Source: an uncultured Bacilli bacterium
GTDB lineage: Bacteria; Bacillota_I; Bacilli_A; RF39; UBA660
Length of the DNA: 64,000 bases
Direction of reading: 5' to 3'
Assembly (NCBI GenBank): GCA_910585045.1
Contig: CAJUCD010000002.1
Coordinates: 73,829-137,828, forward strand
In this document: piece after piece, positions 291 to 61,619 of the stretch
How the letters are laid out: each line of letters begins with the position of its first letter
How positions within the stretch are numbered: position 1 is the stretch's first letter
Translations under genes and position numbers: made by a program
Notes under the pieces: model-generated
The model's database searches: none
What the model saw: only the letters and a program-made list of their open reading frames with translations
Told to the model about the DNA's origin: nothing

Positions 291-422
291 GTTAAGTCCT
301 CCTTTATTCATAATTAATTATATAAATATTATGAGAAGATGTCAATTAGATATACTTTAATAAGAAGTAATTGTTATGCAAGTAATGTTGAGTTTTTGAA
401 GTATTTATGATAGCATAATGTT

Positions 423-17710: not shown

Positions 17711-18163
17711 TTATTTTAAATATTTTGGCTCGTCTATTTTACCGAGAAGATAATCAGCACTTATTTTATATTTTTTACATATATCATAAAGAAAAGGTGT
17801 AGCAATTATGTATCTTCCTGATTCATATCCAGCGATAGTGCCATAAGAACAGTTTAATATTTCGCCTAATTTAGTTTGAGTTAGTTTATGTTCTTTACGA
17901 AATTCTTTTAGTCTTGTACTTGAGTTTTTAATATTGTAACTATGTTTTTGATTAGCATAGTTTTTATTTTTAGTGAAATTAAATATATAGTCAATTGAAA
18001 CATTAAAATAGTCAGTTATAGTTATTAAATGCTTTAGAGGGATTATGTCATCTTCATTTTCATAGTGAGAGTATGTAGTTCGATCAATGTTTAAAATAGA
18101 GGCTAGTTCTTGTTTAGTTAAGATGTTTTTGTTTCTAAGAGAAGTTATTTTGTTTTTATACAT
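17711..18163 (-). CDS. XRE-family transcriptional regulator with two tandem HTH_XRE domains (R1).
   Basis: Two XRE-HTH units of about 60 aa each. The C-terminus SADYLLGKIDEPKYL is shared with the regulator at 53902..54372. Confidence 0.7.
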   Translation of the reverse strand: MYKNKITSLRNKNILTKQELASILNIDRTTYSHYENEDDIIPLKHLITITDYFNVSIDYIFNFTKNKNYANQKHSYNIKNSSTRLKEFRKEHKLTQTKLGEILNCSYGTIAGYESGRYIIATPFLYDICKKYKISADYLLGKIDEPKYLK

Positions 18164-18213
18164 TTGTAATCACCTACAATAATTGTCGCATTTTAAAAAG
18201 TAATTTAAAATAT

Positions 18214-18414
18214 ATGTGGGAAATGCCTCCAAATAGTTGGTTTAAAAGTGGGTCTAGTAGTTGGGCTTTTATGAGTCTAGTAGATACTAGTGGTCGTATT
18301 GCTGGAACTGGTACAAATAGTACAGAAGTTGGCATACGTCCAGTAATAAATTTGAAATCTAACGCAATAATTTCAAGAGGCGCTGGTACGCGAACTAATC
18401 CTTATGTTGTTTAG
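18214..18414 (+). pseudogene. C-terminal fragment of the paralogous secreted-protein family that ends in the NPY motif.
   Basis: SWAF...GIRPVINLKSNAIISRGAGTRTNPYVV aligns to the last 60 aa of the 54557 ORF (SWVWAF...GVRPVINLRSDIKISGNGTKDNPYVV). Confidence 0.65.
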
Positions 18415-28409: not shown

Positions 28410-28438
28410 TTGACAAGTGCTAAGCATAATATTATAAT
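28410..28438 (+). promoter_or_regulatory. Consensus sigma-A promoter of the hrcA operon (TTGACA-N17-TATAAT).
   Basis: Exact -35 and -10 hexamers with a 17-nt spacer. Confidence 0.7.
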
Positions 28439-36040: not shown

Positions 36041-37276
36041 ATGCGAGCAAAATATAAGAGAACTTTATTTTTTATTGGTGTTTTAATAGTTATGTGTGGC
36101 TTTGTGGGAGTGGCATATCTTTTTTATGATAAAGTTTTAAGTCCAGAAACTGATGTTGTAGTAGTAGAAGAATTATCTGTAAATTTTATAGATGGTTTTA
36201 AAGTTAATAGAGAAGGAGCATTTAATTTTTCAGTAACTAATAATGGTGATAAAGATATATATTATGAGATTCGTTATAATGAATTATTAGGATATCAAGA
36301 CAATATTAAGTACAGTTTAGTGTCACAAGATGCTAGTATAAATATTAGTAATGCAACTATTGATAAAGATAATAATAATTTAGCAGTGGGTATTTTGATT
36401 CCTAGCAGAGCTACTCAAAGTTTTACATTCAATGTTAGTGGTAATACTATTGCTTCATTTAATATTGAAATTAGAAAAGTTATGGATACAGATAAATATT
36501 TTTATACTACTATACTATCTAATAATAAAGTTAAAAAATCTAGTGTTACTAAAGTAGGCGAAGAAATAGCAGAAACAGATGAGGGATTAATTGAGGATAT
36601 TGATGATTTAGGTTTAACATATTATTTTAGAGGAAATGTTCAAAATAATTATGTGAAAATAGCTGAATCTTTATGGCGCATCATTCGTATTAATGGCGAT
36701 GGAACAGTAAAATTGGTTTTGGATGAAAATGTTAGTGAATTAGCTAATTATCATAGTGATATAGAAAATTTTGAAAGCTTAAAAGATGCTAGTATAAGTA
36801 CTTATTTAGCAAATTATTATGAAAGTAATTTGACTGAATATGATGATTATATTATAAATTATAAATATTGTATAGAAACAGAAAGTATTAGTAATACTAA
36901 TGAGAAATTGTATAATGGTTATACAAGATTAGTTACAAATAAAATTCCAACATTTAATTGTTTAGGAAGCCTACATAGTAGTAAAATTGGTTTATTAACA
37001 GCAGATGAAGTAATATATGCAGGAGCTAATTTTGAAAAAGAAAATAAAAGCTATTACTTATATAATAGTAAAATTGAGAATGTTTGGTGGACATCATCGC
37101 TTGCTAAAGCTAGTGCCACAGTATTTTATCCTTTTAGTGTTAATAGTAATGGAAAAGTAGAATATGCGACAAGCGGTATGTTATATCGTAATTTGAGACC
37201 GACTATTAATTTAATTAGAAAAACAGTAGTAAGTGGTAATGGTACGAAAGATAACCCTTATGAAATAAAGATATGA
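36041..37276 (+). CDS. Secreted/membrane-anchored protein, paralog A of a family with the conserved C-terminus RPxINL...SGNGTKDNPY.
   Basis: N-terminal signal anchor. Shared blocks with the 54557 ORF: YYFRGN..NY, WRIIRINGDGT, YAG, SYYLYN, and the C-terminal RPTINLIRKTVVSGNGTKDNPYEIKI. Confidence 0.6.
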   Translation: MRAKYKRTLFFIGVLIVMCGFVGVAYLFYDKVLSPETDVVVVEELSVNFIDGFKVNREGAFNFSVTNNGDKDIYYEIRYNELLGYQDNIKYSLVSQDASINISNATIDKDNNNLAVGILIPSRATQSFTFNVSGNTIASFNIEIRKVMDTDKYFYTTILSNNKVKKSSVTKVGEEIAETDEGLIEDIDDLGLTYYFRGNVQNNYVKIAESLWRIIRINGDGTVKLVLDENVSELANYHSDIENFESLKDASISTYLANYYESNLTEYDDYIINYKYCIETESISNTNEKLYNGYTRLVTNKIPTFNCLGSLHSSKIGLLTADEVIYAGANFEKENKSYYLYNSKIENVWWTSSLAKASATVFYPFSVNSNGKVEYATSGMLYRNLRPTINLIRKTVVSGNGTKDNPYEIKI

Positions 37277-53901: not shown

Positions 53902-54372
53902 CTAGTCTAAATAAATAGGATTGTCAACTTTTCCTAAAAGATAGTCTGCTGATAAATTATTTTTTTGACAGATATTATATAAGTATGTCGTTAAAATTTT
54001 ATTTTTATCATTGAGATAAGCCCATATAGTAGAAACTGTTGTGCCAGCATCAATAGCCAGCGATTCTAATTTCAGATGATTTTTTTCTTTAAAATTTTTG
54101 AGGTTTTCTGATAATTTGTTAAAGTTCATTGGCTTATATTCTATATTACTTTTCTCAGTATAAAAGTTGAATAGATAATCTATTCCTATATTATAAAAGT
54201 TAGCTATTAAGTCAAGTTTTTCTAAAGGGATTTCTACTCTAGCTGATTCCCAGTTTGCATAAGTTGCTCTTTTAATATTTAATTTTAAGCATAAATCTTC
54301 TTGCTTTAACTTTTGCTCAATTCTTAAATAATGAAGTTTATTAGCTATAATTATAAGAGGTTCGTTTTTCAT
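53902..54372 (-). CDS. XRE-family regulator with two tandem HTH_XRE domains (R2, paralog of 17711..18163).
   Basis: Two HTH units. The shared C-terminus LSADYLLGKVDNPIYL. Confidence 0.7.
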   Translation of the reverse strand: MKNEPLIIIANKLHYLRIEQKLKQEDLCLKLNIKRATYANWESARVEIPLEKLDLIANFYNIGIDYLFNFYTEKSNIEYKPMNFNKLSENLKNFKEKNHLKLESLAIDAGTTVSTIWAYLNDKNKILTTYLYNICQKNNLSADYLLGKVDNPIYLD

Positions 54373-54455
54373 TATACATCACAGATTAATTGTCTCATTT
54401 TAGCGTTTAAAAATGAATTGTCAAAACTCATATGTGCTCGTTCACGAAAAAAAAC

Positions 54456-54484
54456 TTGACAAATAGTATAGGTGATATTATAAT
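54456..54484 (+). promoter_or_regulatory. Consensus sigma-A promoter TTGACA-N17-TATAAT for secreted-protein paralog B.
   Basis: Exact hexamers. Preceded by an A8 tract. Confidence 0.6.
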
Positions 54485-54515
54485 TTTAGTATAAATGATA
54501 AATTTCTAATATAAT

Positions 54516-54525
54516 TGAGCGCTCA
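54516..54525 (+). promoter_or_regulatory. Perfect 10-bp GC-rich palindrome TGAGCGCTCA between the promoter and the RBS of paralog B. Candidate operator for the divergent XRE regulator.
   Basis: It is its own reverse complement. It stands out in the roughly 80% AT intergenic context. Confidence 0.35.
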
Positions 54526-54556
54526 TTATTTAGAATCAGAGAAAAGAGGATAAATA

Positions 54557-55828
54557 ATGAAATTAGAAAAGTTAGGTAAAAATTATAGAAAAGAAGTAAT
54601 AGGAGGTTTGATAGTAATAAGTGTAATAGGAGTATTAGGATTTAATTTAACAAAAGCTAAGTATCAGAATATTGAAGATATAGAATTAGTAAAAGGCGAA
54701 GTTAATTATAAATTACCAGATTTTAAAATGATGGCAATGTATAAAAGTGATGATGGCAGTTATGAAGAAGTAAGTGAATTACCAGGAAATAACTATAAGA
54801 TAAATGAAAGTAAGAGTTATTGTACAATAAATAATGTAGATAAAGATAATAGTGCAAAACTATATACAGATAAATATGGCCAACATGTAATAGGAAATAT
54901 AAGCAAGAACGATAAATGCTATTTATATTTTGATAAGAATACAGAAGTAGTAAGTACAGTCTTAGGAAATATTGAAGTAAATAACTATACTCCAGACTTT
55001 AGTGTAACAGCAACAACAGATGAAGGAATATTTAAAGCTGAAGATAATGATGGAGTAAGCTATTACTGGAGGGGAGCAGCAACTACAAACTATTTAAAGT
55101 TTGGCGGATATTGTTGGCGCATAATTCGTATTAACGGTGATGGAACGATGAGATTAATCTATGATGGAACAACATGCCATAAAAATGGCGAAGTAACAAC
55201 AGATAGTATAGCAGTAGCAAATATAGCGTACAATGCAGCATTTGGCAAGTCAGAATATGTAGGATGGACATATACTGAGGGCTTACAAAGGCCAAATAGT
55301 ACAATAGAAGGAACAAATGCACCAATTAAAACAGTTCTGGAAAATTGGTATAACAATAATTTAAAGAGCTATGAAGAAAAAATAGCAGATGGAAAATTTT
55401 GTAATGATAGAAACGTTCAAAGTGGGCAAAGTTGGTTAAGCACATCAAGTAATACATACTATTACGCACCCAGCGCAAGAACATATACAAATTATGCACC
55501 AACACTATGCTGCACAGTGCTAGATACATATATATTAAAAGTAGGACTTATAATATCAGATGAAGTAATGTATGCTGGAGGCAAAAATGTTGACAATGAC
55601 TCATACTACCTATATAATGGCCAGAATTATTGGACTATGACTCCACACAGTTGGCTTGTAGGAACAGTTGCCAGTTGGGTTTGGGCGTTCTATGTACATT
55701 CAACTGGCTACTTCAATGCTTACGGAGTAGACAATAAGTTTGGTGTGCGCCCTGTAATAAATTTGCGTTCTGATATTAAGATTTCTGGAAATGGAACAAA
55801 GGATAATCCATATGTTGTTTTAAATTAG
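54557..55828 (+). CDS. Secreted/membrane-anchored protein, paralog B of the RPxINL...SGNGTKDNPY family.
   Basis: Signal anchor. The blocks YYWRGAATTNYLKFGGYCWRIIRINGDGT, YAGG, SYYLYNG, and the C-terminal GVRPVINLRSDIKISGNGTKDNPYVVLN. Confidence 0.6.
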   Translation: MKLEKLGKNYRKEVIGGLIVISVIGVLGFNLTKAKYQNIEDIELVKGEVNYKLPDFKMMAMYKSDDGSYEEVSELPGNNYKINESKSYCTINNVDKDNSAKLYTDKYGQHVIGNISKNDKCYLYFDKNTEVVSTVLGNIEVNNYTPDFSVTATTDEGIFKAEDNDGVSYYWRGAATTNYLKFGGYCWRIIRINGDGTMRLIYDGTTCHKNGEVTTDSIAVANIAYNAAFGKSEYVGWTYTEGLQRPNSTIEGTNAPIKTVLENWYNNNLKSYEEKIADGKFCNDRNVQSGQSWLSTSSNTYYYAPSARTYTNYAPTLCCTVLDTYILKVGLIISDEVMYAGGKNVDNDSYYLYNGQNYWTMTPHSWLVGTVASWVWAFYVHSTGYFNAYGVDNKFGVRPVINLRSDIKISGNGTKDNPYVVLN

Positions 55829-56445: not shown

Positions 56446-58197
56446 ATGAATTTAAAAGATGCATATATAAATTATTTTAAAAAACATGGGCATGTACAAA
56501 TTCCTAGTGCACCATTGATACCAGAAAATGATCCATCTGTTTTATTTAATACAGCTGGAATGCAACCTTTAATTCCATATTTAATGGGTAAAGAACATCC
56601 AGAAGGAAAAAGGCTAGTAGACTATCAAAAGTGTGTAAGACTTACAGATTTAGATAGTATTGGAGATAAAACTCATCATACTTTCTTTGAAATGTTAGGT
56701 AATTGGAGTTTAGGAGATTATTTTAAAAAGGAAAGTATTCAATATAGCTATGAGTTTTTGACAGAGACTTTAAATATTCCAGTGGAAAAATTAGCGGTGA
56801 CAGTTTTTGCGGGAAATGATGATATTCCACGTGATGAAGTTAGTGCTGATGTTTGGCGTAGTTTAGGAATTAGTGAAGATAGAATTGCTTATCTTGGAGT
56901 AGAAGATAACTTCTGGATTGCAGGAGAATCTGGTCCTTGTGGTGGCGATACAGAAATCTTTTATTTTAGAAGTACTGATGAAGTTCCAGCTGAATTTGAC
57001 CCTAAAGATGAACGTTGGGTGGAAATTTGGAATAATGTTTTTATGGAATTTAATAAGGATGAAAATGGTAAAATAACTGAACTTCCTAGTAAAAATGTTG
57101 ATACAGGAATGGGTTTAGAACGTGTTGTAGCAGTACTTGAGGGTGTAGATGATAATTATAAAACTTCTATTTGGAAAGAAATCATAGAGACTATAGAAAT
57201 GGTTAGTAAAAAAACTTATGTTGGTAATGAGCTTAGTATGCGAATTATTGCTGATCATATTAGAACTAGTGTATTTATAGCTGCTGATAGAGCGTTAGTT
57301 AAACCTAGTAATACAGATCAAGGATATATTTTAAGACGTTTAATTAGAAGGGCTATTCGTCATGGTAAAAAATTAGAAATTGATATGAATAGTGATTGGC
57401 TTGCTATAATTGCTAAGGAAGTAATTAAGAAGTATGAGAACTATTATAGTGAAATTAAAGATAATAAAGAGATAGTTTTAGATGTATTAAGAAATGAAAG
57501 TTTAAAATTTAATCGAACTTTAGAAAAGGGTTTGAGGGAATTTGCTAAAATGTTGAAACATTTAGATGGTAATATAATTGATAAAGATAATGCTTTTAAA
57601 TTATATGATACTTATGGTTTTCCAATTGAACTTACAGAAGAAATGGCAACTGAGCATAATATGAGTGTTGATGTTGAAGGTTTTTATGATAAATTTAGGG
57701 CTCATCAAGAAAAGTCACGTACAGCTAGTGCAGGTAAGTTTAAAGGTGGTTTAGCTGGTGATGGAGAAACTGAAACAAAGTATCATACAGCAACTCATCT
57801 ACTTAACGCAGCATTAAAAATAGTTGTAGGACCTGACGTTCATCAAAGAGGAAGTAATATTACTCCTGAGAGAATGCGTTTTGATTTTTCTTGTGATCAT
57901 AAGCTAACTGATGAAGAAAAACATGAAGTAGAGAAGTTAGTTAATGATTGGATAAAAGCAGATATTCCAGTAACTATGGAAACTATGGCTAAAGACGAAG
58001 CTGTAAAAAGTGGAGCAGAGGCTATGTTTATTGAAAAGTATGCTGATATTGTTAATGTTTATAGTATTGGTGATGTTTCAAAGGAGATTTGTGGAGGACC
58101 ACATGTTAATAGTACTAGTGAATTAGGTGTATTTAGAATTAAAAAAGAAGAAGCTAGTAGTGCTGGTGTTAGAAGAATAAAGGCTGTATTAGAATAG
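56446..58197 (+). CDS. alaS: Alanine--tRNA ligase, unusually short at 583 aa. The catalytic, tRNA-recognition and core editing motifs are present. The C-Ala domain and the editing beta-barrel subdomain are absent.
   Basis: N-terminal motifs PLIPENDPSVLFNTAGMQP...HHTFFEMLGNWS. Editing motifs HTATHLLN and CGGPHV. The protein ends at GVRRIKAVLE. Confidence 0.75.
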   Translation: MNLKDAYINYFKKHGHVQIPSAPLIPENDPSVLFNTAGMQPLIPYLMGKEHPEGKRLVDYQKCVRLTDLDSIGDKTHHTFFEMLGNWSLGDYFKKESIQYSYEFLTETLNIPVEKLAVTVFAGNDDIPRDEVSADVWRSLGISEDRIAYLGVEDNFWIAGESGPCGGDTEIFYFRSTDEVPAEFDPKDERWVEIWNNVFMEFNKDENGKITELPSKNVDTGMGLERVVAVLEGVDDNYKTSIWKEIIETIEMVSKKTYVGNELSMRIIADHIRTSVFIAADRALVKPSNTDQGYILRRLIRRAIRHGKKLEIDMNSDWLAIIAKEVIKKYENYYSEIKDNKEIVLDVLRNESLKFNRTLEKGLREFAKMLKHLDGNIIDKDNAFKLYDTYGFPIELTEEMATEHNMSVDVEGFYDKFRAHQEKSRTASAGKFKGGLAGDGETETKYHTATHLLNAALKIVVGPDVHQRGSNITPERMRFDFSCDHKLTDEEKHEVEKLVNDWIKADIPVTMETMAKDEAVKSGAEAMFIEKYADIVNVYSIGDVSKEICGGPHVNSTSELGVFRIKKEEASSAGVRRIKAVLE

Positions 58198-61488: not shown

Positions 61489-61619
61489 TAATTTACTAAG
61501 CATAAAATATTTAAAAAAGCTATATTATTTTATCTTTTTCGCTCTATTTTGACAACTATTTGACAAAATATTTAAAATGTGCTATAATGTATTCGTAATT
61601 CAAATAGGGGGTTAGAATT

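Follow-up and report, generated by a model that had tools for sequence, protein, structure and literature searches.

Comparison of divergent modules points to a bipartite site upstream of the target −35 hexamer as the operator of a two-domain XRE-family regulator in uncultured Bacilli

We have analysed a stretch of 64,000 nucleotides of an uncultured Bacilli bacterium (assembly GCA_910585045.1, contig CAJUCD010000002.1, positions 73,829 to 137,828), hereafter the window, which contains two divergently transcribed genes that we call regB and famB. The open reading frame (ORF) of regB (53902..54372, minus strand) encodes 156 amino acids with two helix-turn-helix (HTH) domains of the Cro/C1 type (XRE, HTH_3-type) in a single chain, while famB (54557..55828, plus strand) encodes 423 amino acids, the protein being anchored in the membrane at its N-terminus and having a DUF6273-like ectodomain rich in beta structure. 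Between them lies a spacer of 184 bp (54373-54556). A promoter scan recognizes an exact TTGACA-N17-TATAAT for famB (54456..54484, plus strand), and a presumed promoter with 11 of 12 consensus matches for regB (54397..54424, minus strand; −35 TTGACA at 54424-54419, spacer of 16 bp, −10 TAAAAT at 54402-54397). The famB promoter is followed by the leader, a 5′ untranslated cassette (54485..54556, plus strand) with a TATAAA hexamer at 54490-54495, a Shine-Dalgarno sequence AAGAGGA at 54544-54550 and the perfect palindrome TGAGCGCTCA (54516..54525), which occurs as a single copy in the window. A preliminary description of this DNA, made from the sequence alone, had given the same divergent arrangement with its spacer of 184 bp, the same consensus promoter, and a perfect GC-rich palindrome of 10 bp between the −10 and the ribosome-binding site, all of which are confirmed; it had also proposed that the palindrome is the operator of regB. 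The comparison of related modules reported here shifts the operator from this plausible palindrome to a target 18 bp long that lies upstream of the famB −35 hexamer, the candidate site TGTGCTCGTTCACGAAAA (54433..54450), with a distal half TGTGCT and a proximal half CACGA(AAA).

The presence of two complete XRE-type HTH domains in the 156 residues of regB, also claimed in the preliminary description, is supported both by Pfam and by an AlphaFold2 model. Against HTH_3 (PF01381) regB scores 59.5 bits, and a second two-HTH regulator of the window, regA, 83.6 bits (cut-off 23); HTH_19 matches regB, and HTH_3 matches regA, in two stretches, the second domain being a weaker Pfam match in regB than in regA. 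With an HTH_3 score above the gathering score and two complete HTH domains in the chain, regB belongs to the XRE family. The model (predicted local distance difference test, pLDDT, 92.5; predicted template-modelling score, pTM, 0.87) consists of two helical bundles, with helices at residues 4-19, 24-31, 35-42 and 50-59 in the first, and 84-97, 102-109, 113-120 and 128-138 in the second; residues 35-42 and 113-120 are the presumed recognition helices. Taken singly, the two domains are Cro/C1 HTHs of the usual kind. In structure they come closest to C.BclI, C.Esp1396I, SinR, and the 434 and P22 repressors, which cover one domain each, and no solved structure spanning both domains was found (query-normalised template-modelling score ≤0.41). 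Tandem XRE HTH proteins are not unprecedented, examples being Wmk and the PHROG 8 regulators: phrog_8 aligns over both domains of regB as one stretch, while the two-HTH regulators of the window fall short of the cut-offs for Wmk (NCBIfam NF047948; 34 and 43 bits, cut-off 300) and RstR (NF041951; 49 and 75 bits, cut-off 80). The exact sequence of regB is carried by 104 contigs of metagenome-assembled genomes (MAGs) labelled 'Bacilli bacterium'.

A scan of species-representative genomes with the regulator alignment returned at least 280 relatives. The best 80 of these belong without exception to uncultured Bacilli of low GC content, in whose genomes many copies are present, and the labels of the MAGs include 'Bacilli bacterium', 'Mycoplasma sp. 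CAG:776', 'Tenericutes' and Ca. (Candidatus) Caccenecus. A family gene was sought divergently within 400 bp of the 78 regulators for which more than 700 bp of upstream sequence were available, and was found for 71 of them. Thus, the suggestion made from two copies in the preliminary description, that regulator and target duplicate as a unit, holds, and the pairing is much more general than two copies; tandem arrays of the type FAM-REG-FAM-REG also occur (L013, L025, L031, L038, L081, and L006; labels of this kind denote individual loci). Neighbours in these arrays have identical leaders, yet different regulators and upstream sites, and some genomes contain a dozen or more modules, for example at the JAMPHW01 loci. 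In L169 (GCA_949048855.1, an assembly that also has the exact regB sequence) a two-HTH regulator of 152 amino acids is transcribed divergently to a family gene with 65% identity to famB, and the spacer of 272 bp lacks the canonical cassette; the standard architecture is therefore not universal among the modules.

Several elements of the intergenic region are common to nearly all modules. The target promoter, (ATTTTTC)TTGAC(T/A)-N17-TATAAT, is conserved in about 68 of 71, and the leaders of about 70 modules fall into a few types, each strongly conserved internally. On the regulator side, the alignment of about 69 modules identifies as a conserved block the Shine-Dalgarno-like GTGAT of regB (54378..54382, minus strand), for which the family consensus is a nearly invariant GGTGAT (ATCACC on the plus strand). 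A second block, ATTGTCTCAT (54389..54398, minus strand; family consensus ATTTTCTCAT, or ATGAGACAAT on the regulator strand), is nearly invariant in all modules, and extends from the last part of the presumed regB −10 into the presumed beginning of the transcript; the regulator-side block ATGAGAAAAT (regulator strand) is likewise nearly invariant. From the regulator-side motif to the target −35 there are 46-47 bp in 57 of 63 modules; in the regB clade there are 57-58 bp, so that its regulator side is longer by one helical turn. A mini-ORF upstream of regB, starting from a conserved ATGAGA, was considered and dropped, as its AUG overlaps the presumed −10.

When 69 modules are sorted by their recognition helices, groups of identical DNA appear just upstream of ATTTTTC-TTGAC, regardless of leader type (positions are counted hereafter upstream of the target −35 hexamer). 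A full site is common to L086, L029 and L061 (TGCTCAAAATAGGTAC), another to L060, L015 and L038 (GCACCTwwATACGAC), and a third to L016, L037 and L078 (TATCCTAATAATGAG). Where only one helix is in common, only one half of the site is in common: in L020 the HTH2 helix is that of the L060 group, and so is ATACGAC; L041 agrees with the L016 group in its HTH2 helix and in AATAATGAG; and L076 shares its HTH1 helix and the distal ATCCCGAAATA with L054, and its HTH2 helix and the proximal ACCAAAA with L048. An independent check is provided by L166, which was fetched via its famB-like gene: its HTH2 helix is NTTHSVIADYEKGR and its proximal half-site, as this helix would lead one to expect, is TCCGAC, the same as in L064/L066, whose HTH2 helix is NTTHSVIADYERGR.

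These relationships were quantified position by position. Pairs of modules that share only the HTH2 helix have an identity of 0.52-0.90 at −12..−8 (background 0.19-0.56), and are at background at −23..−18; pairs that share only the HTH1 helix have an identity of 0.50-0.71 at −22..−18 (background 0.23-0.28), and are at or below background at −12..−8. The same dissociation is recovered by label permutation (59 non-redundant modules, 5000 permutations). For HTH2-only pairs (n = 29) the excess identity is +0.39 (p = 0.0002) at −12..−8 and −0.01 at −23..−18; for HTH1-only pairs (n = 14) it is −0.07 and +0.31 (p = 0.0002), respectively; for pairs sharing both helices (n = 12) it is +0.49 and +0.54. 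Little or no excess can be recognized in the promoter spacer, the early leader and the palindrome zone, either in the profiles or in the permutations. An unbiased residue-by-base mutual-information scan has 113/−8, 35/−22, 41/−17, 115/−11 and 40/−20 among its top pairs. Comparison of the modules thus indicates that the specificity determinant of these regulators is a bipartite site upstream of the −35, in which the C-terminal HTH would read a proximal half-site about 8-12 bp upstream of the −35, and the N-terminal HTH a distal half-site about 18-23 bp upstream, one helical turn further. The two half-sites are unrelated in sequence, about 11 bp apart and on the same face of the helix, and therefore fit one chain that places two HTH domains in successive major grooves; judging from this asymmetry, the regulator most likely binds as a monomer.

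Covariation of this kind could also arise by hitch-hiking, if the regulator gene and the adjacent DNA were simply inherited together with no role of the latter in binding: the site lies on the regulator's side of the recombination junction ATTTTTC-TTGAC, and identity outside the recognition helices also correlates with the segment −15..−8. The double dissociation speaks against this explanation, as the C-terminal helix, encoded furthest from the site, follows the half-site at the greatest distance from the gene, while in those same HTH2-only pairs both the N-terminal helix and the distal half-site, which lie in between, differ; moreover, the DNA at −40..−25, between the regulator start and the site, shows little excess identity. 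Linkage predicts a gradient opposite to the one observed; simple linkage does not account for the pattern, and we consider hitch-hiking quite improbable.

For regB itself, the candidate operator was located in the clade formed by the window, L001, L002, L011 and L012, together with the close orthologues L154 and L168, whose regulators are 52-100% identical with the helices kept. Between the regulator-side motif and the target −35 the only invariant blocks in this clade are TGTGCT and CACGAAAA, with four variable bases between them, while the flanks diverge. The resulting site, 54433-54450, occurs once in the window at up to 2 mismatches. It is 8 bp from the regB −35 (54424), and the end of the block is 5 bp from the famB −35 (54456); the covarying positions end at 54448, 7-8 bp before the famB −35, and their centre is near the midpoint of the two −35 hexamers. 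We regard 54433-54450 as the probable operator of regB, both for its location and for its bipartite mode of reading. Some observations weigh against this assignment. The regB clade is atypical, with its extra helical turn, a full regB −35 and no AAATA between the half-sites, and for this reason the operator of regB rests on a footprint of 5 distinct sequences and on analogy with the wider family. A simple repressor is not usually placed upstream of the −35, and famB already has a consensus promoter; neither repression nor activation is therefore an obvious fit. In addition, global Mantel correlations are modest, and the mutual-information scan also yields clade artefacts (residue 102 with leader position 13, residue 148 with leader position 26); the informative analyses are the class-based contrast per position and its permutation test, rather than the Mantel correlations.

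The behaviour of the palindrome is quite different from that of the upstream site. As a bare statistic it is unremarkable: there are three perfect palindromes of 10 nt with at least 6 G/C in the 64 kb, and a match with no more than one mismatch arises in 24 of 100 shuffles. Its surroundings are also less extreme in composition than the approximately 80% A+T stated in the preliminary description, the measured values being 75% for the spacer and 78% for the leader, with a window mean of 73%. The leader type of the window, palindrome included, recurs in L019, L020, L028, L041, L085, L001, L154 and L166-L168, and among modules with regulators of 35-60% identity the DNA of the leader is 88-100% identical. 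An identical palindrome adjoins four different pairs of recognition helices: those of the window (HTH1 KRATYANWES, HTH2 TTVSTIWAYLN), L019 (SRVQYNQYEN and TTFSNIAFYEKG), L041 (EKDTYGKYER and VVKGTIGNYESA) and L085 (SDSMYSRYEK and VANGTIANYECG). The helices of L019 and L028 are the same, yet their palindrome cores differ (GAGCGCTC versus GAGGCCTC). For regulator pairs that share both helices the excess identity in the palindrome zone is −0.02 (p = 0.64).

The cleanest natural experiment decoupling palindrome and regulator appears to be that of L166 and L167. Their family genes are 72-73% identical to famB, and their promoter-plus-leader DNA is 96-97% identical to that of the window, palindrome included; yet the identity of their regulators to regB is 38% and 34%, and upstream of the −35 their DNA has no relation to that of the window. 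The recombination junction is at (A/C)TTTTTC-TTGAC. Furthermore, the palindrome is absent upstream of another family member of the window (copy A) and beside regA, where the operator proposal of the preliminary description would have it recur, and occurs in one of several leader types. A metagenome scan for more leaders of the window type returned 73 stretches, of which only L154 is a real module, so that no covariation power was gained for the palindrome.

The proposal of a roadblock, in which regB would repress famB by binding to TGAGCGCTCA, between the −10 and the ribosome-binding site, has in its favour that the palindrome is perfect, GC-rich, present once in the window and placed within the transcribed leader of the divergent target, and that related leaders keep it in the same place, with altered cores that are still palindromic (GAGGCCTC, GAAGGCCTTC). 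It is contradicted by the identical palindromes beside regulators that are 34-40% identical to regB and have other recognition helices, by the unlike cores next to the same helices in L019 and L028, by the lack of excess identity in pairs sharing both helices, and by the fact that the palindrome is missing in most modules, at copy A and at the regA locus; nor should perfect two-fold symmetry be required in the site of a chain whose two HTH domains are dissimilar. In the light of these comparisons an operator role of the palindrome for regB is not supported and seems to us highly improbable; the palindrome belongs instead to a separate promoter-plus-leader cassette.

Two further elements of the promoter region were tried as operators and rejected, namely the promoter spacer and the 23-bp direct repeat TAGTATA...GATA: regulators with identical helices adjoin different spacers, and excess identity there is not significant in the label permutation. 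The window has a direct repeat of 14 nt (54464-54477 TAGTATAGGTGATA and 54487-54500 TAGTATAAATGATA, spacing 23 bp); in many modules TTTAGTATA comes after both the −35 and the −10 hexamers, and does not follow regulator identity. A second −10-like hexamer, at 54490-54495, begins 5 nt past the −10 and is almost invariant across modules (TATAAA in the window, TATAAG elsewhere); from its geometry it could be a sigma-dependent promoter-proximal pause element, or else a conserved mRNA 5′ end.

From a site between the divergent −35 boxes the regulator would be in a position to control both promoters. If the regulator −10 directly adjoins the conserved GAGAAAAT, the distal half-site coincides in most modules with the −35 position of the regulator itself, which puts the centre of the whole site near −41 of the regulator promoter and near −51 of the target promoter. 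Many distal half-sites resemble weak −35 boxes on the regulator strand, and both features therefore favour autoregulation. The consensus strength of the famB promoter, in turn, argues for negative over positive control. Such promoters are a real feature of the genome, because 5 perfect TTGACA-N17-TATAAT sites are present in the window versus 0.04 expected. The arrangement that we favour is autoregulation combined with a down-modulation of the famB promoter, which might operate by occupation of the zone used by an UP element and by the C-terminal domain of the RNA polymerase alpha subunit, or by contact with RNA polymerase. The position of the site is more typical of activators, and repression of the target is thus only slightly favoured over activation. 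Exchange at the conserved (ATTTTTC)TTGAC junction would allow promoter-plus-leader cassettes to recombine freely with regulator-plus-operator cassettes.

In the predicted mRNA hairpin 54523..54560 (plus strand), UCAUUAUUUA (54523-54532) pairs with UAAAUAAUGA (54551-54560) as a perfect inverted repeat of 10 nt, with the Shine-Dalgarno in the loop and the AUG in the stem; the first arm is formed by the last three bases of the palindrome (UCA) and the next seven. Its stability is −9.5 kcal/mol (z = −4.3), a value reached by none of 200 shuffles, and the start codon has a pairing probability of 1.0 versus 0.36 in shuffled leaders. From this folding, the 3′ end of the palindrome together with the following 7 nt would take part in a translation-initiation hairpin by pairing with the start-codon region. 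L001 retains this hairpin through one G-U pair. Two points detract from this picture: the hairpin is invariant in its leader group, so that it appears to have almost no support from covariation, and start-codon pairing over all leader types is 0.48 versus 0.39 in shuffles (p = 0.048), weakly above expectation. Sequestration of the start codon for every leader type is thus weakly supported, and was kept for the leader group of the window only. The z-scores for the folding of whole leaders have a mean of −1.05, a suggestive rather than a decisive value. The palindrome as a free RNA hairpin was rejected, having 0 kcal/mol alone and, when extended to 54503-54540, a stability not beyond that of shuffles. 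None of the covariance models of Rfam 15 matches 54485-54556, even at E ≤ 10.

Similar elements are seen in a second set of leaders, group 3 (L045, L047, L048, L052, L056, L062, L072, L075, L077), which carry AATCCGGATT, AACCATGGTT, AATCGCGATT, AACCTGGGTT or AATCGCGGTT at the same distance from the −10 as the palindrome of the window. These are short palindromes with a GC core, in which bases change in pairs, and they overlap a hairpin (AUUUGCU/AGCAAAU) across the Shine-Dalgarno. Within the leader type of the window the core also varies (GAGCGCTC, GAGGCCTC, GAAGGCCTTC) while palindromy is kept.

Three readings of the palindrome, none of them established, are ranked below the conclusion about the upstream site: a DNA site shared by many genes, an RNA switch, or neutral variation under structural constraint. 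According to the first, a different factor common to all genes with this leader type, such as a symmetric dimeric regulator, a methyltransferase or a restriction enzyme, would bind the palindrome as DNA. The core variants (AGCGCT, AGGCCT, TCCGGA, CCATGG, TCGCGA) agree with this, in that palindromy in most of them runs through the central bases (GCGC, GGCC, CCGG, CATG, CGCG), which a hairpin loop would not need; likewise, the position is fixed at about 31-32 nt past the −10 in two leader groups, and is independent of the adjoining regulator. However, several cores coexist in one assembly (JAMPHW01 loci), which argues against a single enzyme or regulator, and many leader types are without such a palindrome; CCTGGG and TCGCGG are imperfect as DNA, the latter being paired only via G-U, which fits RNA better. 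We regard a shared DNA-binding factor as unlikely.

According to the second, the palindrome would act in the RNA, as an anti-sequestor pairing in competition with the start-codon hairpin, in a two-state translational switch. The 3′ half of the palindrome (UCA) belongs to the significant hairpin 54523-54560, and a longer imperfect hairpin, 54503-54540, is possible at −5 kcal/mol; L001 turns a G-C into an A-U and adds pairs at the tip, one group-3 leader variant has a G-U pair, and the group-3 palindrome overlaps the hairpin over the Shine-Dalgarno. Set against these features are the 0 kcal/mol of the palindrome alone and the z-score of −1.2 of the extended hairpin, no better than shuffles, the absence of a match to any Rfam family, and sequences that are too similar for real covariation statistics. 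An RNA switch is thus a tentative reading, somewhat less doubtful than that of a shared factor.

The bipartite reading by tandem XRE domains can be compared with known systems. MarA, SoxS and Rob (AraC-family monomers with two HTH) and the POU domains of eukaryotes bind with one polypeptide to an asymmetric bipartite site of about 17-20 bp, by or overlapping the −35, with one half-site per unit. They belong to other fold families (AraC or homeodomain, as opposed to Cro/C1), and no homology to them was detected. The regB fold is instead that of the HTH of lambda, 434 and P22 cI, of SinR, and of the C-proteins of restriction-modification systems. Phage-type Cro/C1 repressors also resemble the present modules in layout, with a small regulator divergent from its target, a site between the promoters and probable autoregulation; unlike regB, they are homodimers on two-fold symmetric operators that overlap core promoters, whereas regB is a single chain with two dissimilar HTH domains and with a covarying site that lacks symmetry and precedes the −35. 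The Wolbachia prophage protein Wmk has two XRE-family HTH domains in one protein (PMC6736233), but with about 300 amino acids it is larger, it is not paired with a DUF6273-like gene, and PMC6736233 names no DNA target for it. Protein p4 of phi29 binds between A2c and A3, two divergent promoters, and acts as a repressor of strong early promoters and as an activator of one whose −35 is poor (PMC3100819). In most modules, similarly, the target promoter is consensus, and the distal half-site takes up the −35 position of the regulator promoter; p4 is however an unrelated protein that needs the co-factor p6, and in the clade of the window both promoters are near consensus, so that the parallel is one of analogy only. 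A literature search found no description of the module, of its bipartite operator, of a helix-to-half-site code, or of bipartite binding by tandem XRE domains. We file the regB type, on the basis of these sequence comparisons, as a putative XRE-family divergent regulator with single-chain, two-domain, asymmetric reading, multiplied over many surface-protein genes that would each be privately regulated.

The target gene is less easily classified. No match to famB was found in Pfam at E ≤ 0.1, nor in NCBIfam, PHROG or PADLOC. It has more than 6000 homologues, mostly unnamed proteins of 'Bacilli bacterium' MAGs, of which a few carry PF19789 (DUF6273); those with precomputed PF19789 matches are 41-63% identical. 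In the AlphaFold2 model (pLDDT 81.8), residues 1-54 are unstructured or transmembrane and are followed by the beta-rich ectodomain; the only significant match of the model in the Protein Data Bank is the IgA peptidase of Thomasclavelia ramosa (9qa6, E = 4e-5, 299 columns); the matched region of 9qa6 holds the DUF6273 N-terminal domain of that peptidase, which is annotated at residues 31-322 (PMC12402451). The famB protein has no peptidase domain and is anchored by its N-terminal transmembrane helix. DUF6273 domains are C-type-lectin-like, and are targets of diversity-generating retroelements in phages (PMC10743442); famB resembles such domains through its PF19789-bearing homologues and the 9qa6 match. 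No template-repeat-like copy of the 3′ regions of famB, copy A or the family-gene remnant described below was found in the window by blastn, in a search that was not aimed at reverse transcriptase ORFs. The protein is best described, from these models, as a probable membrane-anchored, fast-diverging, DUF6273-like surface binding protein.

The family comprises dozens of pairs of regulator and operator in a genome and hundreds over the different species, and in these pairs changes in the helices map to changes in the half-sites; there are few natural data sets of this kind for the study of DNA choice by Cro/C1 HTH domains, or for the building of orthogonal regulators. At the biological level, these gut Bacilli with their small genomes maintain many surface proteins that diverge fast, appear to be privately regulated and are related to the DUF6273 domain of an IgA protease, which hints at controlled surface variation at the interface with the host or with phages. 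A more ambitious idea, which we put forward as doubtful, is that each module is a self-contained orthogonal switch for one member of a large and variable repertoire of lectin-like surface proteins. Dozens of paralogous two-HTH regulators, each with a private bipartite operator and autoregulating from its own −35, would then hold their consensus-strength target promoters off or on, and an arrangement like that of phi29 p4 might, speculatively, make the module bistable. If this were true, different subsets of surface proteins would be displayed by different cells without DNA rearrangement, recombination at ATTTTTC-TTGAC would reshuffle regulator and operator with respect to promoter, leader and surface gene, and the modules would provide a natural, decipherable recognition code for Cro/C1 HTH domains.

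A variant of the locus is found in L165 (1178-1500), where an 88% identical famB orthologue occupies the syntenic site, upstream of the same 176-amino acid gene and of the same gene resembling an alanyl-tRNA synthetase (AlaRS). The region of regB, operator and promoter is swapped for a gene of 68 amino acids with a single HTH (HTH_26) and for an unrelated promoter without the palindrome; control of the surface gene is therefore exchangeable between close relatives.

Elsewhere in the window, the pairing of regulator and family gene that the preliminary description placed at 17711..18414 stands in part: there is an intact second regulator, but its partner is reduced to a remnant. This regulator, regA (17711..18163, minus strand; 150 amino acids, 38% identical to regB), is now an orphan. 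The remnant (18214..18414, plus strand) encodes the C-terminal 66 amino acids of a family gene and aligns to residues 359-423 of famB (tblastn, 43% identity); the target promoter, the operator region and about 85% of the family gene have been deleted, and the gap of 50 bp retains just the conserved block of the regulator side (ATTGTCGCAT) and a Shine-Dalgarno. Family copy A (36041..37276, plus strand; 411 amino acids) has its own TTGACA-N17-TATACT promoter, and is without regulator, cassette or palindrome.

Besides that of famB, exact consensus promoters are located at 317-345 (minus strand), 28410-28438 and 61560-61588, and also within the famB coding region, at 55590-55618 (plus strand), over the VDNDSYYLYN codons, with the next gene (55915) following after about 300 bp. 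Across the window the GC skew is strongly positive (+0.24 to +0.45 per 2 kb), and nearly all genes are on the plus strand, regA and regB being among the very few on the minus strand. The AlaRS-like ORF downstream of famB (56446-58197) has 583 amino acids, fewer than a typical bacterial AlaRS; related contigs have tRNA-synt_2c plus tRNA_SAD at this gene.

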